Part shown: positions 4,067 through 38,606 of the stretch, in pieces
How the letters are laid out: every line of letters starts with the position of its first letter
Numbering within the stretch: the stretch's first letter is position 1
NCBI GenBank assembly: GCA_946487895.1
Contig: CAMLUO010000004.1
Span: 9,990-73,989 of the forward strand
Source: an uncultured Clostridium sp.
Lineage (GTDB): Bacteria > Bacillota > Clostridia > TANB77 > CAG-508
DNA: 64,000 nucleotides
Direction of reading: 5' to 3'
Translations under genes and position numbers: made by a program
The notes under the pieces: generated by a model
Database searches by the model: none
What the model saw: the letters and a program-made list of their open reading frames with translations, nothing else
Told to the model about the DNA's origin: nothing

Positions 4067-7000
4067 ATGAAAAGTAAAATAATGAAAATAGTTACCATTA
4101 TGTTACTAATAATGACTTTAACAATGACAAATTTCATATTTGTAGGTTCAAGTCTTATTAGTTATGCAGCAAGTGGAGTCGAAACAAACCATAGAAACAT
4201 CGACTTTGATGCATACTTTGTAAATTCAAACAATCAAAAAATATCTTCAGTTGATATGTCAAATCAGGGAGATATTTATTTAAACATGCAAATCGAAGTT
4301 AAAAATGAAGGATATTTCAATGGTAAAATTACAGTAAATGATAGTAATTTTACTTTAGCAGATACAGACAGCAGCTATGTAAATAAAATTGAAGGAAATA
4401 CAATAACTTTAAATCAAATAAATGCAGGTACAAGAACAGAAATTAGAATAAAAGTAGAATTAAATAAAGATGAAATCTTCAACCTAGACAACTTAGCAAA
4501 AACTAGCAAGATTGGACTAGAAGGAAAATATTATGATAGTACTGAAAGAGACATTAATATTGAAGCTGAAAGAGAATTAGAATTAAGTCTAGTTGAAAAC
4601 TATACATCTGATAATATTTCTGATGATATTCAAATAATTACAAATAAAATAACTCAAGTAGATGGAAAAAACAAAAGAGTTATTCAATTATTATGGAATG
4701 TTGGATTAAAAGAAAACAATTATCCAATGAAAGAATTAGAAGCAAGTATAACAGTACCAACTATAGATGGAAAAAGAGCAGAAGTTTCAAGAGTAGTAGA
4801 CTTTAATGAAATGACATATTATGATTACACATATAATGGATCAGATGTAACATTTAAATTTACAAATGAACCAAATGAAGATAACGAAATTCGTTGGAAA
4901 TTAGACGGAAATGAAAAAATAATATTAACATTTGTTTATGATACAGAAGTAGCAGTAAGTAGCCAAGAATTAGTAGCAAGACAAACAGTAAAATTATATG
5001 ATGATAAAGAATTATCATATATGCAAAATGTTATTATTGACAATCAAGAAAAAGATGGTATTGTAGCAATCGAATCAATTCCAGAACAAGAAAAAATGTA
5101 TAAAGGAAATTTATATGCAGGCTTAGAAAAAGAATATGCAGTAGATACAAAATTAGATATTAATTTTGCAAAAGCAATCACTAATAATATTGAAATAGAA
5201 GAAACATCAAACAGAAGTACATTAAGTGATATATATACAAGAACAGTTATATCAAAAGAACAATTTAATGAACTTTTTGGACAAACAGGTGGAATTACAG
5301 TATATGATGAAAATAATCAAATTATAGGAAGAATTACAAATTCAAGTCATGCAGATGAAAATGGAAATATAGTAATTTCATATAATACTGAACCAACAGC
5401 AATAAGATTAGAAACAACAGCACCAGTTGCAGAAGGAACGTTAGAAATCAAAAATTATAAAAAACTTGTACCTAATACTTCAAGTAACATAGCAGAATTA
5501 ACACAAGTTGGATATACAGCAAAAGTTAGTTATGATAATCAAGAAATAGGACAAGTAACAAATAATATTACATTAGAAGAAACAACAACACAAAGTAAAT
5601 TTGAAGTAGATAAAAACACTTTATCCACAGTAGTAGAAAATTCTGTGGAAATGAGAGCAACATTATTAACAAATAATGAAAAATATGATTTATATCAAAA
5701 TCCTACATTTAGATTTGAACTACCAGAACAAGTACAAAACATTGAAATTACAGGAGTAGAACTTTTATATGAAAATGAACTAAGTGTAGCAAATTATACT
5801 GTAGATGGAAGAACTATTGTAGTTACATTACAAGGAAAACAAACAAGTTATAAAGAAACATCAGTCGAAGGTGCAGTATTAGTGGTAAATGCCAATATAA
5901 CTTTAGATAATAGAACTGCAACAACTGATACAAATATAACTATGTATTATGAAAATGAAAATGCTCATTCATATAAAGATGGAGCAAATATAGGAACTGA
6001 AACACAAGCAATAAAAATAGTTGCTCCAAAAGATTTAACAGTAACTAATAATATACCAACAATATCTTTAGAAACAAAAGGACAAGATGAAAATACAAGT
6101 GTAAATTTAATAACAGGAAATGTACCAAAACAATTAGAAATTCAATCTGAAATAATAAACACAACAGAAAGTACAATGAATAATGTAAGAATTCTAGGAA
6201 CATTACCAACAAATAGTGGAGAAAACAATCTAGGAATTTTAGTTACAAATCCAATACAAATATTAAATGAAGTAGATGTAACAATTTATTATACAGGAAA
6301 TGAAAACGCTACAAATGATTTAAACAGCAGAGACAATGGATGGAGTACAGAATTTACACAAGATGCTAAAAGATATTTAATAGTAGCAGAACAATTAAAT
6401 ACAGGAGCAAGTATTGAAATTTCATATTCAATACAAATTCCAGAAACATTAGAATACAATAAACAAGCAAAAGAATATTATAGTGTAAGTTATGTAAGTT
6501 CTGAAACATCAGTAGAAAATACATTGAATTCTTCTACAATTACTTTAGAAACAGGAATTGGACCAAAAATAGAAGCAAGTTTATCTGCAACAATTGGGGG
6601 ACAAGAAATTACACAAAATGTTAAAAATGGAGAAGTAATTCAATATAGAATACAAGTATCAAATACAGGATCAGAAACAATAGACAGTGTTGAAGTTGTA
6701 GGACAAGTTCCAGAAGGTACTACAATGGTTGTACCAGAAGAAGATTATGAATATACAGGAGCTTCATATTATGAAGAATTACCAGATAGAGAATATAGAA
6801 CAACAGCCCAAAATATTGAACCAGGTGAAGTAAGAACATTTACATATGAAGTAAGAGTTAATTCAGATACACCTGAAGGAACTAGATTACAAAACACATT
6901 ACAAATTACATATAATGGAGTGACATCAGAAACAGAGACACATACATTAACAACAGAAAAAGGAAATTTAAGAGTTACAGTAAAAAGAGTAACTGATAGC

Positions 7001-8908
7001 AGTGTAGATTTATATACAGCAGGTGTTGTGCAATATTTTGCAATAATTGAAAATATATCAGATGAAAAATTAACAGATGTAAAAGTACATACAAATTTTT
7101 CTGATAACTTAGAAGTACAAAGAGTAACTTTAATTTCTGGTATGGAAGCAGAAGATGGAGAAATTTATAGAGTAGGTATGGATACAGCACCAATTTCTGA
7201 TAGTCAAAATGAAGGAATTGATCCAGAAGAAACAACAGATGATAGTATGACATCAGAAGATATAGAATATAGTGATGAGATCAATATAGACAGAATTGCT
7301 GCTGGAGAAACAAAAGTATTAAGTTATGACATGTTAATAACTAAAACAGATAATCATGCAATTAATTTCTCAGTAGTAGCAGATGATGGAGAAAAAGAAT
7401 ATAAATCAAATGCTTTAGAAGATGAAGTAAAAGACTTTTCTATTGAATTAAGTATGGAAGATAAAACTGGAACACAAAATGTTAAATCAGGAGATACAAT
7501 AACATATAGTATAAAGGCTAAAAATGAATCTAATACACAAACTAAAGACTTAGTTATAGTAGATAATATTCCATCACAATTAACTGTACAAAGAATTTTA
7601 ATAAATGGAGAAGAATATGAAGTTCCAGATACAAATAGCTTAGAAATACCAATTGATATAGAAGCAAATCAAGAAACAGAAATTGAAATACAAGCAGTTG
7701 TTAATTATTCAGAAGGAAGAGTAGAAGCAGAGGCAATCACAAATGTTGCAACTGCACAAGTATATGGAGAAACAATTGCAACTACATCAGAAATAACTCA
7801 TATCATTTTAGCAAATGATGGTACAGGAGAAGGTGGAAGTGGAAATGGAAATGGACAAAATGATGTTGAAGACAATGATATAGCTACAGGAACAAGTACA
7901 ATTTCAGGATTAGCATGGTATGATGAAAATCAAGATGGTAGAAAAGATGCTTCAGAACAAGTTTTAAGTGGAATAAAAGTAAAATTGTTAAATGTAGATA
8001 CAAATAATATTGTAAAAGATACACAAGGAAATGATTTAGAAGCAACAACAAATGAAAACGGTGTTTATGTATTAGACAGAATAGGAAATGGTAGATATAT
8101 AGCAGTATTTGAATATGACGAAGGTCATTATACATTAACAAAATATAAAGCAGCAAATGTATCTGAAAATCAAAATTCAGACGTATTAAAAAATAACTTA
8201 ACAATAAATGGAGAAGAACAACAAGTAGCTTCAACAGACATTTTAGAGATAAGTAATAATAATATATCAGATATTAATATAGGTTTAGCTTTATTACAAA
8301 ATTACGACTTAAAACTAGATAAATATGTAAGCAGAATAATTATGCAAAATGACAATGGAACAACTGTTAGAGAATACCAAGACGAAACAATGGCTAAAGC
8401 AGAATTAGATGCTAAACAAATAAATGGAACAACAGTTATTGTAGAATATCAAATTAAAGTAACAAATGTTGGAGAAGTAACAGGATATGTAAGAAGAATT
8501 GCTGATTATATACCAAGTGATATGACATTTAGCTCAGAACTAAATAAAGATTGGTATCAAACAGGAAATACAGTATATACATCAATCTTATCAAATGAGC
8601 CAATAGCAGCAGGAGAAACAAAAACAGTTACTTTAACATTAGTAAAATCAATGACAGAAAATAATACAGGACGTGTAAACAATAGAGCAGAAATTACAGA
8701 AGATTACAATGACTTAGGACTTTCAGATATCAATTCTACACCAGGAAATCAAGCATCAGATGAAAATGATATGGGAAGTGCAGATGTTATCTTAAGTATT
8801 AGAACGGGTGGAGCTGTATATATAAGTGTAGTTATTGCAATTTTAGTAATACTAATAATTACAGGATTTGTGATTTGGAAAAAGAAAAATCATAAGAAAG
8901 AAATATAA
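4067..8908 (+). CDS. Giant surface protein A1 (1613 aa): DUF11-like repeats + SdrD-B-like domain + SIRTG/TM/basic tail
   Basis: SD aaaggagg upstream of ATG. Signal-like N-terminus MKSKIMKIVTIMLLIMTLTMTNFIFVG...SYAAS. DUF11-like repeats (e.g. NVKNGEVIQYRIQVSNTGSETIDSVEVVGQVPEGT). G/N-rich linker. SdrD-B-like ISGLAWYDENQDGRKD...NENGVYVLDRIGNGRYIAVFEY (about 7901-8290). Terminal domain ending DINSTPGNQASDENDMGSA, then SIRTG + hydrophobic helix + KKKNHKK. Confidence 0.9.
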   Translation: MKSKIMKIVTIMLLIMTLTMTNFIFVGSSLISYAASGVETNHRNIDFDAYFVNSNNQKISSVDMSNQGDIYLNMQIEVKNEGYFNGKITVNDSNFTLADTDSSYVNKIEGNTITLNQINAGTRTEIRIKVELNKDEIFNLDNLAKTSKIGLEGKYYDSTERDINIEAERELELSLVENYTSDNISDDIQIITNKITQVDGKNKRVIQLLWNVGLKENNYPMKELEASITVPTIDGKRAEVSRVVDFNEMTYYDYTYNGSDVTFKFTNEPNEDNEIRWKLDGNEKIILTFVYDTEVAVSSQELVARQTVKLYDDKELSYMQNVIIDNQEKDGIVAIESIPEQEKMYKGNLYAGLEKEYAVDTKLDINFAKAITNNIEIEETSNRSTLSDIYTRTVISKEQFNELFGQTGGITVYDENNQIIGRITNSSHADENGNIVISYNTEPTAIRLETTAPVAEGTLEIKNYKKLVPNTSSNIAELTQVGYTAKVSYDNQEIGQVTNNITLEETTTQSKFEVDKNTLSTVVENSVEMRATLLTNNEKYDLYQNPTFRFELPEQVQNIEITGVELLYENELSVANYTVDGRTIVVTLQGKQTSYKETSVEGAVLVVNANITLDNRTATTDTNITMYYENENAHSYKDGANIGTETQAIKIVAPKDLTVTNNIPTISLETKGQDENTSVNLITGNVPKQLEIQSEIINTTESTMNNVRILGTLPTNSGENNLGILVTNPIQILNEVDVTIYYTGNENATNDLNSRDNGWSTEFTQDAKRYLIVAEQLNTGASIEISYSIQIPETLEYNKQAKEYYSVSYVSSETSVENTLNSSTITLETGIGPKIEASLSATIGGQEITQNVKNGEVIQYRIQVSNTGSETIDSVEVVGQVPEGTTMVVPEEDYEYTGASYYEELPDREYRTTAQNIEPGEVRTFTYEVRVNSDTPEGTRLQNTLQITYNGVTSETETHTLTTEKGNLRVTVKRVTDSSVDLYTAGVVQYFAIIENISDEKLTDVKVHTNFSDNLEVQRVTLISGMEAEDGEIYRVGMDTAPISDSQNEGIDPEETTDDSMTSEDIEYSDEINIDRIAAGETKVLSYDMLITKTDNHAINFSVVADDGEKEYKSNALEDEVKDFSIELSMEDKTGTQNVKSGDTITYSIKAKNESNTQTKDLVIVDNIPSQLTVQRILINGEEYEVPDTNSLEIPIDIEANQETEIEIQAVVNYSEGRVEAEAITNVATAQVYGETIATTSEITHIILANDGTGEGGSGNGNGQNDVEDNDIATGTSTISGLAWYDENQDGRKDASEQVLSGIKVKLLNVDTNNIVKDTQGNDLEATTNENGVYVLDRIGNGRYIAVFEYDEGHYTLTKYKAANVSENQNSDVLKNNLTINGEEQQVASTDILEISNNNISDINIGLALLQNYDLKLDKYVSRIIMQNDNGTTVREYQDETMAKAELDAKQINGTTVIVEYQIKVTNVGEVTGYVRRIADYIPSDMTFSSELNKDWYQTGNTVYTSILSNEPIAAGETKTVTLTLVKSMTENNTGRVNNRAEITEDYNDLGLSDINSTPGNQASDENDMGSADVILSIRTGGAVYISVVIAILVILIITGFVIWKKKNHKKEI

Positions 8909-8928
8909 GGGAAAGGAGGAAGAAAGCA

Positions 8929-11900
8929 ATGAATAGAACAATAAATAAGGCAAAGAAAATAATTATATCAATAATTGCAATGATTATTGGAATAATAGGT
9001 TTTACTACTATAAGTTCGGCATATTATGTGGGACAACAATTAACAGTTACATATTCACAATATAGAGATAATGCTGATATATACTGTGTTGAGCATGGTC
9101 AAGCTCTACGTGGAAGTGTAGTATATAGAATTATATCTTCAGTTGATATAAATGGAAAAACATCAACAGATCATACTGGAAAACAGATTACACATGATGA
9201 TAATGCTAAACTTGCATATATATTATCAGCAGATAATGGAAGCGATAAAGATAGTGGACCAGTTGCAAATGGTGTATGGAACTTTATCTATACATGGATG
9301 CAAAGTGTTGGAAAAAATCATGCAGGTTTATACAATGGATTTGCAAGTAATAACAGAGGAAGTCATAGCAACTTAAATTCAGAAGCAAATGAATATGCAA
9401 AAAATTTAGGAAGTGCCGAAATTACTGACAATACAAATAAAGATAATATTCAAGTAAAAGCTTACCAAAGAGATGGACAAGATTATTTAAGAATTGGACC
9501 ATTTAATTGGACTTTCTCTGGAACCATTAAAGGAGTTACAGCTCAAGACCAAAATAGTAATAATATAAACGGATTGATATATAGTAGCTTTAATGGAAAC
9601 AATGAATACTGGTATAATGTAGATGAAATAAAATCAGGAAGAGATTTCTATATATCAATTCCTGCAAATGCAAATATAACAAGAATAACAAGGATTTCAG
9701 CAACTGCTAGTATAGATGTTAAAGGTGTAAAAATATGGTTTTTAGAAGCAAAAAATGGATATATGCAAAACTTAATTATAAGAGAACCATATACAGGTCA
9801 AGATGAAATTACAACACCATTTGACTATGATATACCTATTCTAGGAAATTTGAAAGTAATAAAAGTAAATAAAGACAATCATGAAATAAGACTAGAAGGT
9901 GTAGGTTTCTATATTCAACATAAGCAAACAGGAAAATATGTACATCAAGATTCAAATGGAAATATCTCATATGTAGATAATAGACAACAGGCAACAGAAT
10001 TTGTAACTGATAGCAATGGTGAAATACTAATTAGAAATCTGGTAGTTGGTACATATGTAGCATATGAAACAAAAAATCCTAATTATGGATATGAAATAAT
10101 ATCAGATGGACAAGAACAAGAAATTGTAGTTGACAAAACAACAGATTTTGTAATTGAAAATGATCAAATATATGTAAAATTATCAGGATTTGTATGGGTT
10201 GATAAACAAGACCAAAAACAATGGATAAGAAATGATTTATATGATTATGACATTATAGAAAATGGCGAAGAAGTATATTCAGATGGTAATGATATTTTAT
10301 TAAATGGTATTATAGTTAGATTAAAAGATAGAACTACTGGTGAAACTGTAAAAGAAATGAAAACAGGAGAAAATGCAGAATTAGGAGACGGACAATATTT
10401 ATTTACAGATGTATTAATAGACAAATTATCTGATTACTATATCGAATTTGAATATGATGGTTTAACATATACAAATGTAACACCATATAATCAAATACAA
10501 TCTGACTTATATACAGACGAAGAGCTATTAGAACAAAAGACTTCAAAAGCAGCTGAAAGTGCAGAAGAAAGAGATGCATTTAATAAAGGATTTAGTGTAG
10601 TAGAAGGAAGAACACAAACAACAGGATTTACAAGGGACGAAAATGGAAATGAAAGACATCAATTGACATATAATTTCAATTCATTAGAACACAATTCTAC
10701 ATTAATTAATAATGGACAATATCCAATAACAGCAAATACAGATGTTCCTCAATATTTGATTAGAGAACACTTTACATATGGACAAGAAGAAATAAAATAC
10801 ATCAATTTAGGATTATATGAAAGAGAACAACCAGACTTAGCAATTGTTAAAGATATTGAAAATGTTAGAGTTGCAGTAAATGGATATGAACACACATATG
10901 AATATGCACAAAGATTTAATCATCCAGAAAACTATGGAGGAGACGGATTTAATGTAGGTGTTAAATTTGGAGAAAAATATGCAGCAGAGCCATACAAAAG
11001 AGCAATTTATGAAGCAGATTATGAATATGTAAATGAAAATGATCCAAGTAAAGAATTAAAAGTATATATTACATATAAAATAGCTATGAATAATCAATCA
11101 ACAAATTTAATTGCTCAAATAAATAGTATTGTAGATTATTATGATAGTAGATATAGTATTGTCGGAATAGGTACAGGTGTAGATGAAGCTGGAAATATAA
11201 CAGGAAATCTTGAATATACAAATGGTACTTATAATGATAACTATAATCGAGTAATAATTAATAATAACACTAGAATTAATCCATTGACAAGTACTTTAGA
11301 TGCAGATGAAGGAAATGTATATGTACAATTTGAATTGAATAGAGAAGCGGTAATTAATGTACTAAATGGACAAGAAAACTTAGATAATGTGGTTGAAATT
11401 AATTCATATTCAATATTCGATGGCAATGGAAATGTATATGCAGGTATAGACAAAGATTCTAATCCAGGAAGTTCTAATCCAGAAGATAAGACAACATATG
11501 AAGATGACACAGATGCAGCATTATCTTTACAATTAGAAGTAGCAGACGCAAGAGAAATGACTGGTAAAGTATTCGAAGATGAGCCAATAGCAGAAGATGG
11601 AGAAGATACATCAGGTATTATGACAGGAAAAGTAAGACAAGGTAGTGGAATTTACGAAGATGGCGAAACTGGAATTGCAGGAGTAGAAGTAACATTAACA
11701 GAAAATACAGGAAGTGGAAAAGTATATACTGCAACAACAGATGAAAATGGTGATTTCTATATAAGTGGATATATACCAGGAGACTATACATTAACATATA
11801 CATGGGGAGACCAAACATATACAGTTCAAAATTACAAAGGTACAGTATATAATTCTGATAGAGACCAAAATAATGTAGAATGGTATAAGCAAGATGTAGA

Positions 11901-12966: not shown

Positions 12967-12983
12967 AATTGAAATATAAAAAA

Positions 12984-13023
12984 CTAAGATAGATAACTTA
13001 AGGTTTTCTATCTTAGTTTTTTT
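12984..13023 (+). terminator. Rho-independent terminator of cassette 1
   Basis: 10-bp stem ctaagataga / tctatcttag followed by a T7 run, 18 nt after the B1 stop. Confidence 0.8.
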
Positions 13024-13140
13024 ATCCAAAAAATGTTGTAATAAATTTGTAAAGAAAATTTTAAAAAGTAGTAATAAATCGATAAGAATATTATCCGTAG
13101 TAGTTTAGGGAATAATTGAGATATTAAGCTATAAAGATAG

Positions 13141-13168
13141 TTGAAAAATTTATAGAATATTATATAAT
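13141..13168 (+). promoter_or_regulatory. Sigma-A-type promoter (TTGAAA-N16-TATAAT) for the 988-aa gene
   Basis: TTGAAA 13141-13146, TATAAT 13163-13168, about 40 nt upstream of ATG 13207. Confidence 0.5.
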
Positions 13169-13206
13169 TATATATGATACAGACGTAATAGGTAGGAGAG
13201 ATTAAT

Positions 13207-16173: not shown

Positions 16174-16286
16174 ATTGCTATATCAAATCAAAAGAAAAGC
16201 AACATTAGTTACACCAAGAAAAATATTACAAATGTTACAAAAATGTAAAAAAAACTTAAAAAAAGAGACAAAAAAAACGTGAAATG

Positions 16287-16315
16287 ACCTTCCGTAGTAA
16301 GCGGAAGGTTTTTTT
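16287..16315 (+). terminator. Rho-independent terminator
   Basis: 8-bp GC-rich stem accttccg / cggaaggt, 7-nt loop tagtaag, T7 run. Lies 114 nt after the stop at 16173. Confidence 0.8.
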
Positions 16316-16435
16316 GTTAAACTTGGAAAAAACTGATATTGATTTAATTTTAAATACTAGTTACTATATATTTAAGGAATAATATATCTAAAAATCGAAG
16401 TGAAAATTGTACTTCGAGAAAGGGAGAAGTTAGCT

Positions 16436-21202: not shown

Positions 21203-21222
21203 AAGAAAGGAGGTAAAAGCAG

Positions 21223-25584: not shown

Positions 25585-25591
25585 AATACAT

Positions 25592-25777
25592 AGCCAAGCT
25601 ATTATATAAAATTTTATTTATTACTCGGCTAACATTACATCATTAAGAAAATTTAAAATTACCCAATAGGCACCTCTCAAAGCGAGTTTGAGATTCTCCT
25701 ATTGGGTAATTTAATATTTTCTAGAATGATTTCATTTGCATTCGTAATTTCATAAAATTTTATATAATAGCTTGGCT
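25592..25777. repeat. 186-nt nested palindromic element E2 (26-nt perfect outer arms, 15-nt inner arms, conserved core)
   Basis: agccaagctattatataaaattttat (25592-25617) is the exact reverse complement of 25752-25777. Inner arms aaattacccaatagg (25656-25670) / cctattgggtaattt (25698-25712). Apical hairpin tctcaaa-gcgag-tttgaga. Followed by TTTTT, 8 nt after the B2 stop, so it probably also terminates cassette 2. Confidence 0.9.
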
Positions 25778-25842
25778 TTTTAAAGATGATTATTCCTACG
25801 CAAATAGATGGTTTGAGGAAAACTAATAAAATAAGTTACAAT

Positions 25843-25871
25843 TTGTAACAAAAATGTAAAATAAATATAAA
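25843..25871 (+). promoter_or_regulatory. Candidate promoter of cassette 3 (TTGTAA-N17-TATAAA) overlapped by a 15-nt perfect palindrome
   Basis: TTGTAA 25843-25848, TATAAA 25866-25871. GTTACAATTTGTAAC (25835-25849) is a perfect 7+1+7 palindrome covering the -35. Confidence 0.4.
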
Positions 25872-26012
25872 AAAAAAGACATTAAATTCCATAAAATTAG
25901 CTTCCCTAGTTAATTAGGAGAAGGTCTTTAGAAAATGGAAAAAACTTCACTTGAATTTGAGAAAAATAGATTGTACCATATAATTAAGAAATATTTTATT
26001 TTGGAGGTCATT

Positions 26013-29000
26013 ATGAAGGGGAAAATAGCAAAAAAAGTAATTATGCTAATTTTTATTTGTATACTAACAATGTTTGACGTTTTTGTGGTTAGTAAACAAA
26101 TAGTTCAAGCAGATGGAGAAGAACAAAGTGAACAAGAAAAAACAGAAATGAGTATTACACAGGGAATAGAAAAATATTTTGAGCTTTCTGAAAATCAAAT
26201 ATTATTGCAACAAAGAATTGATACTTTATTAAATAAAGCTGATAAAGTAAGAAGTTCAGAAAAATTACAAGTTAATGTCCCTGAGATCGGAGAAAGAATA
26301 CCAGATACAGCAATTGTATTATTAAACGGAATAAAGCTTCCAGATAATACATATTTTTATGATGTTCAAAATAGAAGATTAGAGATATCATTAAATAAAG
26401 AAAATGAACTATTTAGTGATAGACAAAATATTTATCAAGTTATTTATACCTATTCAGAATTACCAGTAGAAGAAAAAGTAAATATGGTTTTAAATACAAC
26501 TGTAACAACTAATATAGAAGATGAAGGAGAATTAAATTCAACTAATGAACAAGAAATAGAAACAGAAGTAAAAGGTTCAAATATATCTCTTATGGGAGAT
26601 ATAACTGATGAAGTATATAAAGGATATTTATATCAAGGAACACAATCTCCTACATCATATGCAGTAATGAATAGGATACAAATATCAAATATAGACAATT
26701 TAGATACAGTAACAATAAATAATGTATCTGAAGCTTTTGTGGAGGAAGAAAAAGTTGTAGATTCAAGAACAAATGAAGAGACAACAGTTGAGAATGAAAG
26801 AAATATAGAGCAATTAGTATATTATACATTAACAAGAATTAGTAAAGAAGATATGCTTAGAATATTAGGTGATGATGGAATAATTACTATATATAATCAA
26901 AATGATGAAGTATTAGCAGAGTTTAATAAAGATACACAAGAAGATGAGAATGGAAACTTAGTAATTCAATATAATGGAGAAGATGTAACTAATGTAAGAA
27001 TAGTAATGACTAAACCTGTACAAGAGGGAATAATTGATATTTACCATGATAAAGCAATAAAAGCAAATACTGGATTTTTAAGATCAGATATTGAGAGATT
27101 TGATTACTTAAGAGAAACTATCCAAGCAAATGAAGAAACAATAGTAATGAATATGAAGTTAATAGAACCAACAACGCAATTTGATGTAACTGTAAATAAA
27201 ACAGATTATTCAACAATGAATATGAACAAAGATATAGAAGTTAGTCTTACATTAAAAAATAATTTATCTAATATGAGTTTATATGAAAATCCAGAAATAG
27301 AAATTGTATTTCCAGAAGAAGTTAAAAATTTAGAAATACAAGATCAAGTTAATATACTTTATGATTCAGAGTTAAGTATAAGGGAAAGCTATGTAGAAGG
27401 AAATGTCGTTCATATATTATTAAATGGAGTTCAAACTAATTACAAAGAGATTGGTACACAAATCAATTTAAAAGTAAATATGGAATTTGACAAAACATTA
27501 ACAAATAGAACTTCTGAAATAGTAACAAAAGTAAAAAATAGAGCCGAAGAAATAGAAAATAGAAAAGAAGTTAATATAACATCTCCAAGAGAAATAATTA
27601 CAGTTAATAATATACAAGAGTTAGGTGTTGAAAGTTATGGAGAAGAAAAACAATTAACAACTGAAATAGCAAAAAATGCAGATGAAAAAACTATGCAAGT
27701 TGAGTCTGAAGTAATTAATAATACAGAAAATGCAACATCTGTAAAAATATTAGGAGAATTTCCAACAAATGATAGTCAAAATAATTTAGGGGCAACTATA
27801 AATACACCTGTGCAAGTAGAAGGTGTAAATGCTACTGTTTATTATACTGCAAATGAAAATGCAACAGAAAACCTTGAAGAAGATACAAATGGATGGGTTA
27901 CTGATGTTAATTCAGTAGCTAATGCAAAAAAATATTTAATTACTATAGATGAAATGAATCCAGCTAATAGTGCAAAATTTACATATTCTGCAGCTATTCC
28001 TGCAGACTTAGAATATAACCAAAAAGCAAATGAAGGTTATATAGTATATTATACTGATGCACAATCAAATGTTAGTAATAAAGCAGAAGCAACAGATGTT
28101 TTAATGACAACAGGAGATGGACCTATTGTTGAGGCAGAATTAGTAGCTAAAATTAATGGCAAAGCAATTAATACAGGTGATACTGTAAAAGCTGGAGAAA
28201 AAATAAGCTATGAAGTCAATTTGAAAAATACGGGAACAGCAGATGCAAGTAATATAGCAGTTGATTTAACTATTTCACAATCAAATGATGCTGGAAATGA
28301 TGAAGTAGTAAATTTAAATGTAAAAAGTATTGCACCAAATGAAACTAAAACAGTTAGCTATGAAAAAGAAATTCCTACAGATTTAAGTAGTGAGATTTCT
28401 TTAACAGCTGGTGCTAAGGTTTCTTATGAAGATGAGCAAAAAGATACTAATCAAATGGTTTTAAATGCAGAACCAGCAAAAATTGTTGGTGAAGTTAGTT
28501 GGAATACAGCAAATGATGAATTATATTATAATGATACTGCAGGAATTTTAGTAAATATAACTAATAATACTGATGAGCAACAATCAGGATTAACATTACA
28601 ATGGGATTTACCAGATGGTTTTGAAATAGGAGGACAAAGAATTTTATATCTAAATCAAGACAAAGAAAGTGAAGAATTAGAACCTACGAAAACAGTAAGT
28701 TTAAGAACTTTAGAACCTAGAGAGACAATGACAATTGCTATAACTGTATATACAGAAGAATTTGAAGAAGAAACAAAAATGTTATATGCTTCTGCAACAG
28801 TAAGTAAAGAAGAAGTTTATAGATTAGGGAAAACCAGTGAAAAGGTTGTTCATAATAGAAACAAATTCTTTAGTGTTCAGTTAACAGCAAATGATGAAGA
28901 TGATTATGTACAACCAGGCGAAGAAATTGTATATACAGCTAATATAACAAATGAAAATATTAATGAAGTGAATTTGTATATAACAGATACTATTCCATCA

Positions 29001-30359
29001 CAATTAGAAATTAAAGATGTCAAGGTAGATGGTAAAGATGCAGATATTGAAATAAGTTTTAATGAAGTAGCAATTTCGGTTAATAGTTTATCACCAAATC
29101 AAACAATTACAGTAACTATAACAACAGTTGTAAGAGAATTGGAGGGAGTTACTGAAGATGAAGAAATAACAAATCAAGTAATAGTAAATAATTATCAGGG
29201 AGATGAGGTTGTATCTAATCAAGTGACACATTTTATAGATAGACCAGAAGATCCAGAAGAACCAGAAGATCCAGAAGAACCAGAAGATCCAGACAATCCA
29301 GATAACCCAGACAATCCAGATAACCCAGATAATCCAGATAACCCAGATAATCCATCAGATACAGAAACATATAGAATAAGTGGTACAGTATGGTTAGATA
29401 ATTCACTTGAAGGTAGAAGAGATGATAACGAAAATGGAGTAAGTGGAATAAATGTATATTTGATGAATGCACAAACAAATCAAATAACAGATATTTCAAC
29501 TTCTACAAATTCAGATGGATTTTACACATTGTCTAATATACCAAATGGAGAATATATAGTTGTTTTTGATTATTCTTCAACTCAGTATGGATTAACTAAA
29601 TATCAAGCATCTGGAATAGAAAATAATAGAAATTCAAAAGCATTAGCAAAACAAATAAATATATTTGGAACAGAAAAAACATACGGAGTTACAGATACTA
29701 TTACGATAAACGGAGGTAGTATAGGTAATATTAGTATGGGATTAACAGAGTTAGATGATTTTGACTTACAGATAGATAAATATATAAGTAGGATTATTGT
29801 AAAAACTCAAAGTGAAACAAATGTATATAGTTATAATAATGTAAATTTAGCTAAAATAGAAGTAAATGCTAAGAAAATAAATAATGCAGAAATAACAGTT
29901 GAGTATGCTATAAGAGTAACAAATGTAGGGCAAATAGAAGGATATGCAAGGAGAATTGAAGACCGAATTCCGGATGGATTTACATTTGATCCTTCTGAAA
30001 ATAAAGATTGGTATAGTTCAGGAGATAATATTTATAGTGTGATATTAGCAAATGAAAAAATTGCAGCAGGTGATTCAAAAATTTTAACTTTAACTTTGAC
30101 TAAAGATATGTCAGATGATACAACAGGAACTTATACAAATAATGTTGCGATAGATGAAAGCTACAATGAATTAGGTGTAACTGATTCAAATGCTAAAGGT
30201 GGAAATGATACAAGTTCGGCAGAATTAATTGTAAGTATAGGAACAGGTGCTATAGTTATTTACACAATATTAACATTATCAATTATTGGTATTATAGCAA
30301 TAGGAATATATTTTATAAAAGTAAAAGTTTTGAATGTGAAAAATGAGGAAAGGAGGTAA
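26013..30359 (+). CDS. Giant surface protein A3 (1448 aa), paralog of A1/A2 lacking their first N-terminal module
   Basis: Start moved to ATG 26013: SD ggagg 5 nt upstream, and the N-terminus MKGKIAKKVIMLIFICILTMFDVFVV aligns with A1/A2. Collinear blocks VYKGYLYQG, DENGNLVIQYNGE, LYENPEIEIVFPEEV. Acidic P/D/N linker, SdrD-B-like ISGTVWLDNSLEGRRDD.... Ends VSIGTGA + hydrophobic helix + KVKVLNVKNEERR. Confidence 0.9.
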   Translation: MKGKIAKKVIMLIFICILTMFDVFVVSKQIVQADGEEQSEQEKTEMSITQGIEKYFELSENQILLQQRIDTLLNKADKVRSSEKLQVNVPEIGERIPDTAIVLLNGIKLPDNTYFYDVQNRRLEISLNKENELFSDRQNIYQVIYTYSELPVEEKVNMVLNTTVTTNIEDEGELNSTNEQEIETEVKGSNISLMGDITDEVYKGYLYQGTQSPTSYAVMNRIQISNIDNLDTVTINNVSEAFVEEEKVVDSRTNEETTVENERNIEQLVYYTLTRISKEDMLRILGDDGIITIYNQNDEVLAEFNKDTQEDENGNLVIQYNGEDVTNVRIVMTKPVQEGIIDIYHDKAIKANTGFLRSDIERFDYLRETIQANEETIVMNMKLIEPTTQFDVTVNKTDYSTMNMNKDIEVSLTLKNNLSNMSLYENPEIEIVFPEEVKNLEIQDQVNILYDSELSIRESYVEGNVVHILLNGVQTNYKEIGTQINLKVNMEFDKTLTNRTSEIVTKVKNRAEEIENRKEVNITSPREIITVNNIQELGVESYGEEKQLTTEIAKNADEKTMQVESEVINNTENATSVKILGEFPTNDSQNNLGATINTPVQVEGVNATVYYTANENATENLEEDTNGWVTDVNSVANAKKYLITIDEMNPANSAKFTYSAAIPADLEYNQKANEGYIVYYTDAQSNVSNKAEATDVLMTTGDGPIVEAELVAKINGKAINTGDTVKAGEKISYEVNLKNTGTADASNIAVDLTISQSNDAGNDEVVNLNVKSIAPNETKTVSYEKEIPTDLSSEISLTAGAKVSYEDEQKDTNQMVLNAEPAKIVGEVSWNTANDELYYNDTAGILVNITNNTDEQQSGLTLQWDLPDGFEIGGQRILYLNQDKESEELEPTKTVSLRTLEPRETMTIAITVYTEEFEEETKMLYASATVSKEEVYRLGKTSEKVVHNRNKFFSVQLTANDEDDYVQPGEEIVYTANITNENINEVNLYITDTIPSQLEIKDVKVDGKDADIEISFNEVAISVNSLSPNQTITVTITTVVRELEGVTEDEEITNQVIVNNYQGDEVVSNQVTHFIDRPEDPEEPEDPEEPEDPDNPDNPDNPDNPDNPDNPDNPSDTETYRISGTVWLDNSLEGRRDDNENGVSGINVYLMNAQTNQITDISTSTNSDGFYTLSNIPNGEYIVVFDYSSTQYGLTKYQASGIENNRNSKALAKQINIFGTEKTYGVTDTITINGGSIGNISMGLTELDDFDLQIDKYISRIIVKTQSETNVYSYNNVNLAKIEVNAKKINNAEITVEYAIRVTNVGQIEGYARRIEDRIPDGFTFDPSENKDWYSSGDNIYSVILANEKIAAGDSKILTLTLTKDMSDDTTGTYTNNVAIDESYNELGVTDSNAKGGNDTSSAELIVSIGTGAIVIYTILTLSIIGIIAIGIYFIKVKVLNVKNEERR
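29244..29354 (+). repeat. In-frame tandem repeats inside A3 (18-nt PEDPEE units then seven 9-nt PDN units)
   Basis: ccagaagatccagaagaa x2.5 followed by ccagayaay x7, encoding PEDPEEPEDPEEPEDPDNPDNPDNPDNPDNPDNP, the linker preceding the SdrD-B-like domain. Confidence 0.9.
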
Positions 30360-30362
30360 AAC

Positions 30363-33300
30363 ATGACAAAGAAAATTAAAAATATAGCTATCTTGATTAT
30401 TAGTTTTATAATGTTTGTGTTAATAGGTTTGTGCGATAAAGAAGCATTAGCTATAAAAAAAGGCGATATAGTGTATTTAACAGCCAATTCAACAAAAACT
30501 ATGAATGAGTATAATCTAGCAAGTGGTTCATCAAATTTCTTTTGTATACAAGAAGGTCAGCCCTTAGATGCAAATACAAAATTTACTGTTACAAGATATG
30601 AGCCTATAAAAGGAGATAATGAAGTAGATTATAGAATGTGTTGGATAGCTTATCAACAAAATACAGATAGCAAGCCAGAAGGTGCAAATGGTATTGGTAC
30701 AGAACCTTCTTACTCAGTAAAACAAAGAGCTATATATGGATACTTTCCAACATGGGCTACAAAACATGGATGGAAAGATATAGATATTAATTCAGGTGGT
30801 CAATATTCACCAGGTTGGGAAGAAGAATCTTTAAAGCAATGGAAAAATTGGGAAAAGGCTAAAAATGCAAATATTAAAAATAATAAAACCGTAACTAGTT
30901 TGAAAAAAGAATTATATAATTATAATGGACAATCATATATAAAAATAGGACCTTTTAATTTTACATATTCTGGTGCAAATCCAAATGTGGTTTTTGACAT
31001 TACTAATCAAAATGGAACTAAAATGTCTGCTTTATATGGCGTATATGATGGAGGAACACTTAAAATATCATCAGGATTTCAAGCAGAAAACTATTCTAAT
31101 ACAGATTTTTACTTATTTATAAGAACAGATTCAAATGCAACATCAATTAATTTAAAAGTAACTCTTACAGATAACAGATGGGATTATACAGGGGATGTTT
31201 ATTTATTAGAATCTGATATAGAAGTAATAGTTGATGAAGTGGGAAAGAAAACACAAAATGTTATTTATACAACAAGTGAGTTTACAAGGGAAACAACTAC
31301 AGATAATGTTGAAATGAGAAATATACCTTTGACAGGAGAATTAGAAATTATAAAACAAGATAAAGATACAGGTGCAGTATTAAATAATGTTGGTTTTGTA
31401 CTATATAATGCACAAACAAAACAATATGTTGCATCAACAAGCTCAAATGGTATAGCAAAATATACTTCTAATAGAAGTGAAGCCAAAGAATTTATCACAG
31501 GAGTAGATGGCAGTTCAGGAAAGGTTACAGTGAAGGGCTTAATAGCTGGAACATATGATATATATGAGACTAAAAATCCAAATTATGGATATCAGGTTTC
31601 AAAAGATACAAAAGTTGCATCTGTAACAGTAAATCCTGGAAGTGCATCTTCTGGGACAGTTAATGATAGCCAAAGAACGATAGCAGATGGATATTATGAA
31701 ATAGAGTCAGCTTTAAAATCTAATATGGTTGTAGATTTGGCAAGTGGTAAAACAATAGATTCAACTAATGTTCAATTATATACTAGAAATAATTCTGCAG
31801 CACAGCAATTTTATGTTCAATATGTGGGAAAAGGATATTATGTGATAAGGTCAGCTGCAGCATATAATAAAGTGTTAGATGTACAAAGTGGCTCAACAGA
31901 TTCAGGTGCAAATGTACAAATATATACGAGCAATGATACAGATGCTCAAAGATGGGCTATAAGAGATGCTGGAAATGGATATTACTATATTGTCAATAAA
32001 GGTGGAGGAAAATACCTAGATGTTCAAGGAGCACATACAGATAATGGTACAAATATCCAAGTTTATAATGGAAATAGGAGTAATTCACAGAAATTTAAAT
32101 TTAACAGTAAAAATACAACTGAAACATCTAAAATAACAATATCAAATACGAAACAGACCGGAAACATGAGAATCAAAAAGGTAGATGCAACGAATTCTTC
32201 TGCAATGGCTGGAATAAGCTTTAAAATTAAAAATTCTGCTGGACAATATATAATAGCAGTAGATTCTAGTGGAAGAACACAATCAAGAGTTACAGGAACA
32301 ATACATTTAGGAAGTATGCAAACAACAACAAATGTAAATAGTGCAACAGAATTTGTGACAAATAGTAATGGAATAATAGAAATATATAATATGAAAGTTG
32401 ATACATATCAAGTAGTAGAAACATCACTAGGAGATAATTATTATGGATATGAATTGGAGAGTAGTTATATATCTTGGTCAAGTAATAAAGGCAGTGGAAC
32501 AGGAGCAACATCAAGTATATATATTAATAGGCAAACTTCAAGTAATACGAGTGCAAGTGCTTCAGGAAAATATGATCTATTAACAGTAAAAAATAGGAGA
32601 AAATATGTAAAAATTTCAGGTTATGTATGGGAAGATATAGCTTGGGATGACGGAAAAAATCAAGATGCAAACCAATTATATCAGGCTATAAATGATGATA
32701 AAAACGACAAATTGTTAAATAACATAGTAGTCAGACTAAAAGATAGTAATGGTTCTACTGTACAAGAAGTTAGAACAAACTCAAGTGGAAAATATACATT
32801 AAATAATGTTTTAATAGATAACTTGGGTAGATACTATATAGAATTCTCATATAATGGTATGGCATATGAATCAGTAGATATAATAAACATATCAAATAAT
32901 AGAGGAACAAAAGCAATAGAAGGAGACAATAGAACGTCATTTAATGGAGAATTTGCTCAAATAACAACAGGACAATCAAATAATAGCAGTGGAACTAAGA
33001 CAAATGATATAAGATATAATACAGAAGATTATAAGAGTGTGATTGATTATGAAGGAACATATCAATATGGATATGATGCATCACAAGTAAACTATATGAC
33101 ACCTGACGAATATAGAACATATTATCCAGTAAATGGTGTGGCAAGTAAATATTTAATTTCATCTTCAACATATAATGCATATAGATCAGTAGGAAGAAGC
33201 GGATACTTGTCAGACATAATAAGTGCAGATAGCATAAGACAAAATGGAACAACAGAGATTGGAACAACATTCACATCTGGAATAAACTTAGGATTAAAGA

Positions 33301-35723
33301 AAAGAGAAATGCCAGACTTATCTGTAGTAAAAGATATAGAGAGTGCAACAGTAAGTATAGTTGGAACACAACACGTATATAAATATGGAGACAGATTTAA
33401 TCCAGATTTATGGGCAGAAAATAGTAACGGAGTAAGTGGACATGAATTAGATCCACAAGTGAAATTCGAGGAAAAATATGCAGAAATGTCATATTCAAGA
33501 GCACTATATGCATCAGATGTGTACTATACAGGAGATCAAGGAGATCCATTATCAGTATATCTAACATATAAGATAGGAGTAAGAAATAATTCAACAGGAC
33601 TAAATGCAGTTATTTACGAATTAGATGATTACTTTGATGCAAAATACAATTTAATAGCAATAGGAACAGATATAAATGCTGATGGAAGTATAAAATCAGG
33701 AACACAAATTACTAACTATACATCACCAACAAATGTAAATAGTGAGTATAAGAAAATGACAATAGGAGGAAGCAACAGGGCAATATTTGAACTAAGTCCA
33801 TTAGAAGAAAAATATATTTATGTACAACTACAAGTAAATAGAAGTGATATTATACAAATTGTAGAAAATAGCGACAGTGAAAATTCTAAATTAGATAATA
33901 TTACAGAAATCAAAAAATATGGAATGACAAAAACAAACGAGAATGGTGTAAAAGAGGTATATGCCGGAATTGACAAAGATTCACAACCGGGAAATACAGA
34001 CATCAATGATAGAACAACATGGGAAGATGATACAGACAAGGCACCAGGAATGTTATTAGTATTACAACAATCAAGAGAAGTAAATGGAAAAGTATTCTTA
34101 GACACAGATGAGAATCCACTAGATGATGGACAACAAGTACATACTGCAGTTGCAAGACAAGGAAATGGACAATATGATGATGATGAAAAAGGAATAGAAA
34201 ATGTAAAAGTAACATTAGTAGACCAAGATGGAAATATAGCTCAGGTATATAATGAATCAAGTAAACAATATGAAGATGCAGTAACATATACAAATGAAAA
34301 TGGAGAATATACACTTGATGGATTTATACCAGGAGAATATGAAGTACAATACACTTGGGGCGGAAATGTTGATGGTGCAGGACTAAATTCAACATATACT
34401 CTAGATAGTGGAGAAGAAGAAATTGTTAATGTACAAAACTATAAGAGTACAGTAGTAGATGAAGATGTATGGAATGCAAAAGGAACAAATGAAAAATGGT
34501 ATAATGATAACTTCAAGAGAAATTATCCAGGACTAGAGTGGAATAATTCATCTAATACAGAAATTAGAGCATCAGATGCAGTAGATGATTATGATACAAG
34601 ACTTGCAATAGATTCAGAAACAGGGGAAATAACATATAGTGAAAAACAAAAACTTGAAAATACATATGACTCTACTTCAACAGAAGAAAAATATACAAAT
34701 ACACAAATGAATTCTAATACACAAAACTTCACAGTATATTTAGAATATGGAGATACAGCAGATGGCATAACAAATGCAGGGGGTAATACAACAAATTATA
34801 GTGAAGACACAGTAAATAGAATCAATAGTGTTGACTTTGGAATAATAGAAAGGGCAAGACAAGTATTACAATTAAATAAACATATAACAGCAGCAAGAAT
34901 TACACTTGCAAATGGAAATGTATTAGTAAATGCAAAATTAGAAGATGGACAATTAGTAGATCAGGCACAATATGTTGTAGTAACACCATCTTCACCAGGA
35001 GCAAATGGAATGGTAAGAATAGAAGTAGACCAAGAAATTATACAAAGTGCAACAGTAGAGATAGAATACGGTTTAGAAATAACAAACATAAGTGAATTAG
35101 AATATCAAACAGAAGAGTTCTATATGTATGGAGCAGGAAATGGAGAAGACGGAAGTAAATTAGTAACATTACAACCTGGACTAATAATAGATTACTTAGA
35201 TAATAATTTAGCAACAGATATGAGCGAAAATGCTGTATGGGACTCAATAGCACAAGAGAATAGAAAATCACAGTTAATAGATACAGGACTATTATCAGAA
35301 AGCCTAGAAGATATTTTATCAGGAACAAGTAGAGTAATAACAACAGATGATGCAGCAGATCAAGTGTTAGTTCCATTAGGAATAGAAATTGCTGGAATGA
35401 ATAATACATCAAGTATAGAAGTTGCATTAAGTGGATATAAATTATTGTCTAATACAGGAGATGAAACATTCCTAGAAAATAATGCGGAAATAATTAGAGT
35501 AATCAAGAATAATGGTGGAGGAACATTAATAACAACACCAGGAAACTATAATCCAAGCGATTCAAGCACATCAGAGTTGGACAACTCAACATCAGAAAGC
35601 TTAGTAATATTACCACCAACAGGATTAACAACAAATTATGTTGCATATATCTTATTAGCAATAAGTTCACTAGGAATACTAGTTGCAGGAATAATCCTAA
35701 TCAGGAAATATGTGATTAAATAG
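30363..35723 (+). CDS. Giant surface protein B3 (1786 aa), paralog of B1/B2 with inserted ricin-type lectin and a second SpaA-type domain; canonical LPPTG signal
   Basis: ATG 3 nt after A3 stop, with SD aaaggagg inside the last A3 codons. SpaA-type GELEIIKQDKDTGAVLNNVGFVLYN...GTYDIYETKNPNYGYQ and GNMRIKKVDATNSSAMAGISFKIKN...DTYQVVETSLGDNYYGYE. SdrD-B-like ISGYVWEDIAWDDGKNQD.... GIDKDSQPG...TWEDDTD. C-terminus VILPPTGL + hydrophobic stretch + IRKYVIK. Confidence 0.9.
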   Translation: MTKKIKNIAILIISFIMFVLIGLCDKEALAIKKGDIVYLTANSTKTMNEYNLASGSSNFFCIQEGQPLDANTKFTVTRYEPIKGDNEVDYRMCWIAYQQNTDSKPEGANGIGTEPSYSVKQRAIYGYFPTWATKHGWKDIDINSGGQYSPGWEEESLKQWKNWEKAKNANIKNNKTVTSLKKELYNYNGQSYIKIGPFNFTYSGANPNVVFDITNQNGTKMSALYGVYDGGTLKISSGFQAENYSNTDFYLFIRTDSNATSINLKVTLTDNRWDYTGDVYLLESDIEVIVDEVGKKTQNVIYTTSEFTRETTTDNVEMRNIPLTGELEIIKQDKDTGAVLNNVGFVLYNAQTKQYVASTSSNGIAKYTSNRSEAKEFITGVDGSSGKVTVKGLIAGTYDIYETKNPNYGYQVSKDTKVASVTVNPGSASSGTVNDSQRTIADGYYEIESALKSNMVVDLASGKTIDSTNVQLYTRNNSAAQQFYVQYVGKGYYVIRSAAAYNKVLDVQSGSTDSGANVQIYTSNDTDAQRWAIRDAGNGYYYIVNKGGGKYLDVQGAHTDNGTNIQVYNGNRSNSQKFKFNSKNTTETSKITISNTKQTGNMRIKKVDATNSSAMAGISFKIKNSAGQYIIAVDSSGRTQSRVTGTIHLGSMQTTTNVNSATEFVTNSNGIIEIYNMKVDTYQVVETSLGDNYYGYELESSYISWSSNKGSGTGATSSIYINRQTSSNTSASASGKYDLLTVKNRRKYVKISGYVWEDIAWDDGKNQDANQLYQAINDDKNDKLLNNIVVRLKDSNGSTVQEVRTNSSGKYTLNNVLIDNLGRYYIEFSYNGMAYESVDIINISNNRGTKAIEGDNRTSFNGEFAQITTGQSNNSSGTKTNDIRYNTEDYKSVIDYEGTYQYGYDASQVNYMTPDEYRTYYPVNGVASKYLISSSTYNAYRSVGRSGYLSDIISADSIRQNGTTEIGTTFTSGINLGLKKREMPDLSVVKDIESATVSIVGTQHVYKYGDRFNPDLWAENSNGVSGHELDPQVKFEEKYAEMSYSRALYASDVYYTGDQGDPLSVYLTYKIGVRNNSTGLNAVIYELDDYFDAKYNLIAIGTDINADGSIKSGTQITNYTSPTNVNSEYKKMTIGGSNRAIFELSPLEEKYIYVQLQVNRSDIIQIVENSDSENSKLDNITEIKKYGMTKTNENGVKEVYAGIDKDSQPGNTDINDRTTWEDDTDKAPGMLLVLQQSREVNGKVFLDTDENPLDDGQQVHTAVARQGNGQYDDDEKGIENVKVTLVDQDGNIAQVYNESSKQYEDAVTYTNENGEYTLDGFIPGEYEVQYTWGGNVDGAGLNSTYTLDSGEEEIVNVQNYKSTVVDEDVWNAKGTNEKWYNDNFKRNYPGLEWNNSSNTEIRASDAVDDYDTRLAIDSETGEITYSEKQKLENTYDSTSTEEKYTNTQMNSNTQNFTVYLEYGDTADGITNAGGNTTNYSEDTVNRINSVDFGIIERARQVLQLNKHITAARITLANGNVLVNAKLEDGQLVDQAQYVVVTPSSPGANGMVRIEVDQEIIQSATVEIEYGLEITNISELEYQTEEFYMYGAGNGEDGSKLVTLQPGLIIDYLDNNLATDMSENAVWDSIAQENRKSQLIDTGLLSESLEDILSGTSRVITTDDAADQVLVPLGIEIAGMNNTSSIEVALSGYKLLSNTGDETFLENNAEIIRVIKNNGGGTLITTPGNYNPSDSSTSELDNSTSESLVILPPTGLTTNYVAYILLAISSLGILVAGIILIRKYVIK
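31686..32105 (+). other. Ricin-type beta-trefoil lectin domain within B3
   Basis: Three pseudo-repeats with QxW-type motifs: NVQLYTRNNSAAQQFYV, NVQIYTSNDTDAQRWAI, NIQVYNGNRSNSQKFKF, each preceded by [LV]D[VL]xxG. Absent from B1 and B2. Confidence 0.85.
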
Positions 35724-35730
35724 AGGAAAA

Positions 35731-35761
35731 AGCTATTGAAATGATTTTCAGTAGCTTTTTT
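35731..35761 (+). terminator. Rho-independent terminator of cassette 3 (first of two)
   Basis: 11-bp stem agctattgaaa / tttcagtagct (one G-U), 4-nt loop, T5 run. 8 nt after the B3 stop. Confidence 0.75.
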
Positions 35762-35767
35762 CTTATG

Positions 35768-35792
35768 AAGCAAGATTTATCCTTGCTTTTTT
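35768..35792 (+). terminator. Second, weaker terminator hairpin
   Basis: Stem aagcaag / cttgctt, 7-nt loop, T6 run. Confidence 0.5.
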
Positions 35793-38589: not shown

Positions 38590-38606
38590 ATTTATAGGTG
38601 ATAAAA

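Follow-up and report, generated by a model that had tools for sequence, protein, structure and literature searches.

In this study, we have analysed a 64-kb stretch of DNA (here, the window) from an uncultured Clostridium sp. (contig CAMLUO010000004.1) in which three successive pairs of very large genes, A1-B1, A2-B2, and A3-B3, are predicted to encode surface proteins. The window has a G+C content of approximately 28%, and almost every gene lies on the plus strand. Seven large plus-strand open reading frames (ORFs) are located between minC (2379-2990) and spoIIE (35962-38418), in the order A1, B1, X, A2, B2, A3, and B3 (Table 1). A preliminary description of this DNA had placed all six A and B genes correctly; its statement that six proteins fill 31.6 kb with no accessory genes was wrong, since gene X lies between B1 and A2.

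The A proteins and the B proteins are two sets of collinear paralogs, with 28 to 32% identity in the A set and 29 to 32% in the B set. In BLASTP alignments, A1 was 28% identical to A2 over 1,713 columns (E = 4e-143) and 32% identical to A3 (E = 9e-158), and B1 was 29% identical to B2 (E = 2e-129) and 32% identical to B3 (E = 2e-140). Similarity between A and B was confined to the last module, and A3 lacks approximately 200 N-terminal residues that are found in A1 and A2. At the DNA level, only short patches of 64 to 72% identity remain between the cassettes, which rules out recent duplication or gene conversion. The proposal of an A-B module in three anciently diverged versions is therefore borne out by these identities, with a collinearity far beyond chance (E = 2e-129 to 9e-158); the peptide blocks quoted in its support are present in the proteins, and the count of 27 matches in 36 nucleotides (nt) between the DNA blocks at 8318 and 20597 was exact.

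The A stop codon and the B start codon are separated by 20, 20, and 3 nt in cassettes 1, 2, and 3, respectively, and AAGGAGG precedes each B start, in agreement with the earlier observation that B starts 3 to 20 nt past the A stop with its own GGAGG. From its sequence context, B1 is translationally coupled to A1. A3 and B3 share one reading frame, with only TAA and one codon (AAC) between them (30357-30365). Longer alternative starts exist for A2 (GTG 16400) and A3 (ATG 25935); the ATG codons at 16436 and 26013 are favoured by their ribosome-binding sites and by the normal signal peptides that they yield and, for A3, also by the promoter-like site immediately upstream.

Promoter-like sites in the window were no more common than in shuffled sequence, and their counts alone prove nothing. 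Our comparison set consisted of at least 80 species-level genomes that encode full-length relatives of A1. In these related loci, a near-consensus promoter-like site was found before 89 of 91 A-type gene starts, at a distance of 57 to 110 nt, and in A1 orthologues it was mostly located 62 to 80 nt upstream of the start. Because this position recurs despite the divergence of the flanking sequences, we read the A1 site as a conserved housekeeping-sigma promoter. Sporulation-specific expression, suggested by the spoIIE neighbour, is unlikely given this conserved sigma-A-type promoter. Hairpins followed by U runs are present after B1, X, B2, and B3 and fold far better than shuffled sequences (z = -3.4 to -7.0); they are AT rich and are missed by a strict terminator scan, and were detected by direct folding against shuffles. 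The earlier claim that each pair has its own promoter-like region and hairpin terminator thus holds for the terminators; for the promoters, it was not borne out in general, as their number equals that in shuffled sequence, although the A1 site is conserved in position. The hairpin after B2 (36 nt) is enclosed by an inverted repeat of 31 nt with 94% complementarity (25587-25617 and 25752-25782). The repeat may represent a compound terminator, what is left of a small mobile element, or a segment capable of inversion.

Table 1. Genes and sequence features of the A-B locus, in window coordinates
Feature	Position	Strand	Description
Promoter-like site of A1	3992-4020	+	Sigma-70/sigma-A type, TTGAAA-17-TATAAT, 11/12 match
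A1	4067-8908	+	1,613 amino acids (aa); signal peptide, approximately 12 or more Ig-like beta-sandwich domains (DUF11/CLIPPER, SdrD_B); core paralog
A1 sorting-like signal	8795-8905	+	SIRTG, 23-residue hydrophobic helix, KKKNHKKEI
B1	8929-12966	+	1,345 aa; signal peptide, thioester-like head, SpaA/CnaB and SdrD_B stalk, sorting-like signal
B1 thioester-domain-like head	9016-9843	+	Residues 30-305; Cys53 (9085-9087), Gln280 (9766-9768)
B1 sorting-like signal	12829-12963	+	TPATG, hydrophobic helix, KKK tail
Terminator hairpin after B1	12978-13022	+	Followed by U run; dG -20.2 kcal/mol, z = -6.7
Promoter-like site of X	13141-13168	+	11/12 match
X	13207-16173	+	988 aa; Listeria-Bacteroides (Flg_new) repeats and ChW repeat; neither A nor B paralog
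Terminator of X	16286-16310	+	Hairpin, from folding
A2	16436-21202	+	1,588 aa; accessory paralog
A2 sorting-like signal	21077-21199	+	SIRTG
B2	21223-25584	+	1,453 aa; thioester-like head with Cys67 (21421), Gln311 (22153)
B2 sorting-like signal	25471-25581	+	TGPTG
Terminator-like hairpin after B2	25646-25722	+	Core 25656-25712; z = -3.4 for the folded stretch 25650-25790
Promoter-like site of A3	25957-25984	+	TTGAGA-16-TATAAT, 11/12 match, before ATG 26013
A3	26013-30359	+	1,448 aa; accessory paralog
A3 sorting-like signal	30234-30356	+	SIGTG
B3	30363-35723	+	1,786 aa; thioester-like head with Cys61 (30543), Gln298 (31254); ricin-type lectin insert 31695-32096
B3 sorting-like signal	35610-35720	+	LPPTG
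Two tandem terminator hairpins after B3	35725-35790	+	Each followed by U run; dG -28.7 kcal/mol, z = -7.0

Domain architecture of proteins A and B

The Pfam families found in A were DUF11 and SdrD_B, and those found in B were SpaA and SdrD_B, to which B3 adds RicinB_lectin_2 (E = 1.3e-42). The DUF11-like, SdrD-B-like, and SpaA folds named in the preliminary description were thereby recovered, as was a ricin family, which it had listed for a Pfam check and which was found in B3 (E = 1e-42). DUF11 (CLIPPER), SdrD_B, SpaA, and DUF7927 are isopeptide-domain families that have been shown or predicted to form the stalks of fibrillar adhesins (PMC12617251).

The first 850 residues of A1 had no Pfam match. 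An AlphaFold2 (AF2) model of this region, with a mean confidence score (pLDDT) of 85.8, is an all-beta string of beta sandwiches, and its best Foldseek matches were immunoglobulin-like (Ig-like) domains or legs of PrgB, integrin alpha chains, antigen I/II (AgI/II), and macroglobulins. There is no cysteine among the 1,613 residues of A1, and the sole cysteine of A3 lies within the signal peptide. On the strength of the models, A is a long, cysteine-poor rod of Ig-like isopeptide-type stalk domains that has no recognisable head.

B begins with a domain that resembles a thioester domain (TED). Cys53 is the only cysteine among the 1,345 residues of B1, and together with Gln280 it accounts for two of only six invariant columns in an alignment of 23 B heads that are 16 to 59% identical. 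Cys53 lies in the sequence YCVEH (motif [YF]C[VMIL][EQD]); the cysteine was invariant in alignments of 27 and 23 sequences that included B2 and B3, and of 80 B N-terminal regions taken from the related loci, 77 had it. Cys53 is placed on a strand (E51-53) in the AF2 model of the head (pLDDT, 87.3), and in characterised TEDs the cysteine motif [YFL]C-Phi-zeta lies on a beta strand (PMC6194298). Gln280 (MQNLI), also invariant, is part of a Phi-Q-N-Phi-Phi motif 227 residues after Cys53, a spacing that resembles those of class II TEDs (171 to 204 residues in the SaTIE and EfmTIE86 examples). B2 and B3 retain both residues. The third motif, of the TQxxPhiW type and located on helix alpha-2 in TEDs, reads KQRAIY in B3, TQTSPY in B2, and TQRALY, AQRALW, or VQNAIW in many relatives.

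An initial profile search of the PDB with B included the SpaA columns and matched only pilin CnaB domains. In a Foldseek search with the model of the B1 head, only two PDB chains matched at an E value of 1e-3 or less, both of them from 6fwv, the thioester-isopeptide-ester (TIE) domain protein of Bacillus anthracis (BaTIE; E = 2.9e-4, probability 0.97). Given the invariant motif cysteine and glutamine, the single cysteine of B1, and BaTIE as the sole significant fold match, B is probably a TIE-type adhesin with a divergent, putative thioester head. The suspicion of a thioester domain in the preliminary description was a good lead, supported by the motifs and the fold, although the Pfam TED model that it had listed for checking gave no match.

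Core and accessory pairs in related species

All of the A1-bearing genomes belong to uncultured gut Clostridia, from human, mouse, rabbit, and sheep hosts. The gene order in 80 related loci was PBP2, MinC, small divergent ORFs, A1, B1, 0 to at least 2 further A-B pairs, SpoIIE, a WG-repeat protein, and a 414-aa protein, and A preceded B in all 80. The most distant species, in which A1 was approximately 35% identical, carried one pair only, with spoIIE directly after it. In a tree of the C-terminal module of A, every first-slot gene fell into one clade that tracks the species, and second-slot genes were distributed over several deep clades, one of which included A2, one A3, and others neither. 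On the basis of the gene order and this tree, A1-B1 is the core pair of the lineage, and A2-B2 and A3-B3 lie in a variable accessory zone in which the type of paralog differs by species. The idea of one module kept in three divergent versions therefore needs qualification: the coupled two-gene surface module stands, but the cassettes are not equivalent, with A1-B1 constituting a core in at least 80 species and the others numbering 0 to at least 2.

Both proteins of the core pair have changed rapidly. Identity was 79% for A1 and 84% for B1 where PBP2 was 98% identical, and 35 to 36% in distant species where PBP2 was 64% identical. The changes are spread over the full length, and the wall-proximal C-terminal module of A is the best conserved part. 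Antigenic or functional diversification, as proposed earlier, would fit the much faster evolution of A and B compared with the adjacent genes. The N-terminal part of A had 549 relatives at an E value of 1e-30 or less among representatives of 50%-identity clusters, most of approximately 1,600 aa. Among the matches listed for A1, none of the 120 homologues bore a functional name, the only name being "hypothetical protein".

Clostridial surface layers (S-layers) are built from two subunits, and one alternative may be that A1-B1 is not an adhesin but a structural part of the envelope, an S-layer-like coat or spacer of which the extra cassettes are variants. The 1:1 logic of two subunits would be reminiscent of such layers, A is without a binding head, and in every related species sampled one A-B pair is found at the same site, between the cell shape and division genes PBP2/MinC and spoIIE, with a conserved strong housekeeping-type promoter and a strong ribosome-binding site. 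However, no SLH, CWB2, or other S-layer anchoring domain was found in A or B with Pfam or NCBIfam, and the combination of thioester-like head, lectin, isopeptide stalks, and sortase-like signal is that of fibrillar adhesins. The very fast sequence turnover and variable copy number also fit host- or ligand-facing proteins, and we consider a coat function improbable.

An accessory A is fused in frame to B in 13 of the 80 species, giving one continuous ORF. At the fusion junction, the S[IV]xTG motif of A is followed by its helix, a short basic loop, and then the signal peptide of B, with no stop codon. A close relative (L079) encodes a complete A-B fusion of 2,938 aa, the B part of which is 69% identical to B3 of the window, and only one stop codon keeps A3 and B3 of the window from forming a fusion. 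In the tree of the A C-terminal module, all of the fusions fall within a single old paralog clade; therefore, the arrangement has been stable. In the topology predicted for it, which is coherent, a membrane hairpin joins two ectodomains that both lie outside. These fusions provide Rosetta-stone evidence, which argues that A and B act together in equal amounts.

A 1:1 ratio in turn argues against a polymerised pilus shaft. It could be envisioned that A and B form heteromeric pili polymerised by a sortase, with A as the shaft and B as the tip adhesin, since B resembles the tip pilin Cpa in its SpaA-type domains and thioester-like head, and both proteins carry sortase-like signals. Nevertheless, no class C sortase or SipA-like gene was found beside the pairs in the window or in the 80 related loci, the subunits are 150 to 200 kDa rather than 30 to 70 kDa, and A and B each end in a wall-anchor signal that is complete in itself. 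Fusions at 1:1 in 13 species are incompatible with many shaft subunits carrying one tip. A pilus island was rejected on the grounds of the missing class C sortase and the ratio fixed by the fusions, and we regard polymerised pili of any such kind as very unlikely. The preliminary description had spoken of a surface fibre unlike canonical pilus islands; the departure from pilus islands is upheld, whereas a polymerised fibre is at odds with the stoichiometry that the fusions imply.

Gene X is an interposed surface protein gene in its own transcription unit, interrupting the A-B array. With Pfam, its product contains two Listeria-Bacteroides repeats, one ChW repeat, and weak OmpL47- or phage-spike-fibre-like segments, and BLASTP matched it to neither A nor B at an E value of 1e-3 or less. 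Its N terminus, KGSITLYVLVAMLL, resembles minor type IV pilins, below threshold only (ComGE; E = 1e-3 over the first 60 aa). One relative (L002) carries a 44%-identical homologue of X in the same slot; other close relatives do not.

Upstream of the array, minC is not followed by minD or minE, and two small divergent minus-strand ORFs are present instead, at 3013-3390 (125 aa, with a C-terminal helix) and 3390-3887 (165 aa, Asn/Ser rich). Neither has a family match, and both keep their place beside A1 in most related species. Downstream, a plus-strand gene for an AAA_14/DUF4143 ATPase (38598-39803) lies between spoIIE and the WG-repeat gene. In those related loci that extend far enough, the WG-repeat gene follows spoIIE without this gene, which is probably a local insertion because it is missing from that position in the relatives.

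Anchoring and relation to known systems

All six A and B proteins end with a TG motif, a hydrophobic helix, and a basic tail, 17 to 45 residues from the end. The motif S/G-[IVL]-x-TG was kept in the A-like ORFs that reach the C terminus, of which approximately 110 from other species were examined, and [TI]P[ASPN]TG was kept in nearly all of approximately 69 B-like ORFs from other species. Only B3 (LPPTG) has the canonical L-P at the first two positions of the motif, the other sequences being S[IV]xTG in A and [TI]PxTG or TGPTG in B. The LPXTG_anchor model (TIGR01167; cut-off, 15.9 bits) was passed by A1 (18.3) and B1 (16.6), and B3 scored below it (14.0); the A2, A3, and B2 tails gave no match to this model, and no other CTERM sorting family fitted any of the six tails. 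Signal peptide, repeated Ig-like stalk, and C-terminal anchor together make up the layout of a fibrillar adhesin, with a recognisable adhesive domain only in B, namely the thioester-like head and, in B3, the ricin lectin.

We postulate, with slightly more confidence than doubt, that the locus encodes an uncharacterised paired variant of the Gram-positive fibrillar (TIE-type) adhesins, consisting of a core pair and accessory paralog pairs. Each cassette would produce two giant proteins in matched amounts, which would be exported by their Sec signal peptides, anchored at their C termini, and presented next to each other on the cell surface. A would be a rod of approximately 1,450 to 1,600 residues of Ig-like isopeptide-type domains. 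In B, the Cys-Gln pair of a head carried on a SpaA/CnaB and SdrD_B stalk would bind a ligand covalently, and the ricin lectin of B3 would bind glycans. A sortase whose gene lies elsewhere in the genome would cut the C-terminal signal between T and G, and the product would be linked to the cell wall. A1-B1 would be expressed from its conserved housekeeping-type promoter, and A2-B2 and A3-B3, as ancient paralogs in the accessory zone, may supply alternative binding specificities.

Several observations weigh against this proposal. With regard to the head, its Foldseek match to 6fwv has a low TM score (0.28; root mean square deviation, 10.7 Å), the Pfam TED (PF08341) and NCBIfam thioester/TQXA models gave no B match at an E value of 0.01 or less, and a family profile restricted to the head retrieved no TED chain from the PDB, only a spurious match to a myxobacterial hemagglutinin repeat. 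In B1, moreover, the TQxxPhiW position reads VANGVW, with the glutamine replaced by alanine and the tryptophan retained; the residues of this motif are stated not to be essential for bond formation in the paper describing TEDs. Neither Pfam nor Foldseek identified a binding domain in A. With regard to the anchor, the A motif has no proline. The SrtB sortase of Clostridioides difficile cuts (S/P)PxTG between T and G, and the proline-less NVQTG of CbpA, to which the A motif is comparable, was not cut by SrtB in vitro (PMC4155245). No sortase was found in the 64-kb window by a TLxTC scan or among the Pfam families of the neighbouring genes; the earlier remark that sortases, recombinases, and transposases are absent nearby was borne out for the window. 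A TLxTC scan of the window and the 80 related loci yielded a single sortase gene, in locus L063, and scans sensitive only to close relatives of the query detected a class-B sortase in just 2 of the 80 species with A-B. The class-B sortase of L063 adjoins its own NPQTL substrate.

That locus, from mouse gut, contains three genes inserted between B1 and spoIIE (18929-22399), for a pilin-like protein of 424 aa, a 363-aa protein with an NPQTL sorting signal, and the class-B sortase (LTLSTC). Scans of genome collections with this sortase and its relative retrieved mostly Bacilli-type metagenome-assembled genomes and were uninformative about sortases across the clade. Since its closest relatives are in such genomes, horizontal acquisition of the L063 sortase is suggested.

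The points on anchoring favour an alternative in which A and B are paired as above but are held in the cytoplasmic membrane by their tails, the xTG motif being structural or read by a factor other than a sortase. No sortase is encoded in the window or at the conserved locus of the 80 species, class-B sortases were found in just 2 of these by targeted scans, the A motif is without the proline typical of sortase sites, like the NVQTG left uncleaved by C. difficile SrtB, and the helix-loop-helix of the fusions would be a plausible stable membrane hairpin. Conversely, T-G directly before a helix and a basic tail has been kept in both families across deep divergence, and in the fusions as well; A1 and B1 score above the LPXTG_anchor cut-off; and the sortase scans see close relatives of one query only. 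We consider membrane anchoring a serious alternative, though a doubtful one.

In a more far-reaching reading, the A-B unit would be an obligate, lineage-defining, two-partner surface organelle in this order of uncultured gut Clostridia, and the fused forms would be natural polyproteins with an internal sorting signal. One translation product would thread the membrane twice, a sortase would cut at the S[IV]xTG of A, and signal peptidase would cut after the signal peptide of B, so that two wall-anchored giant proteins would be laid down at the same spot. Our literature search on internal sorting signals and sortase polyproteins found no report of such biogenesis for sortase substrates, and we put this idea forward tentatively, as one that is unlikely to hold.

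No surface proteins of this widespread, uncultured gut lineage are larger or evolve faster than A and B. If the B heads are active thioester domains, they would allow covalent attachment to a host or dietary ligand, with specificities that differ by cassette. The A-B pairing and the natural fusions also offer a testable case of two surface proteins that need joint delivery. If the lineage is the GTDB order TANB77, as we suspect, then clinical attention has already been drawn to its surface structures (PMC11680825); the "pilin" of that report concerns a Tad-type pilus and not A-B.

The component domain types of A and B are known, but their obligate pairing and its conservation throughout a lineage have not been described before. 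Among characterised sorting motifs, [TI]P[ASPN]TG of B resembles the (S/P)PxTG of C. difficile SrtB substrates and S[IV]xTG of A resembles the NVQTG of CbpA; the C. difficile system differs in that the cognate sortase is known and in that NVQTG itself was not cleaved in vitro. SpaA-type pilus islands likewise combine SpaA-type domains, sortase-like signals, and neighbouring genes for different surface subunits. Unlike those islands, the A-B locus has no pilin-specific sortase, encodes giant subunits that occur as 1:1 fusions, and lies among housekeeping genes. A and B share long stalks, a signal peptide, and a C-terminal anchor with the fibrillar adhesins that have DUF11/CLIPPER, SdrD_B, and CnaB stalks, as classified by Monzon, Bateman, and colleagues (PMC9210967, PMC12617251). 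These known adhesins are single genes, whereas here a coupled pair occupies a fixed locus and A is without an identifiable adhesive head.

The closest parallels to B are the TIE proteins, such as BaTIE (6fwv, class II TED), SfbI and Cpa of Streptococcus pyogenes, and CpTIE of Clostridium perfringens, which, like B, have a signal peptide, a Cys/Gln head, an isopeptide-type Ig stalk, and a sortase-like signal. The cysteine and glutamine motifs of B match the published ones, and BaTIE is its sole significant fold match. B differs from these proteins in showing no sequence match to Pfam TED or to TEDs in the PDB, in the loss of the motif 3 glutamine in the B1 lineage, and in its sorting motif, which is [TI]PxTG and not LPxTG. 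It is also two to three times larger than the TIE proteins and, in contrast to them, always has a second giant protein, A, as its partner and in some cases is fused to it.

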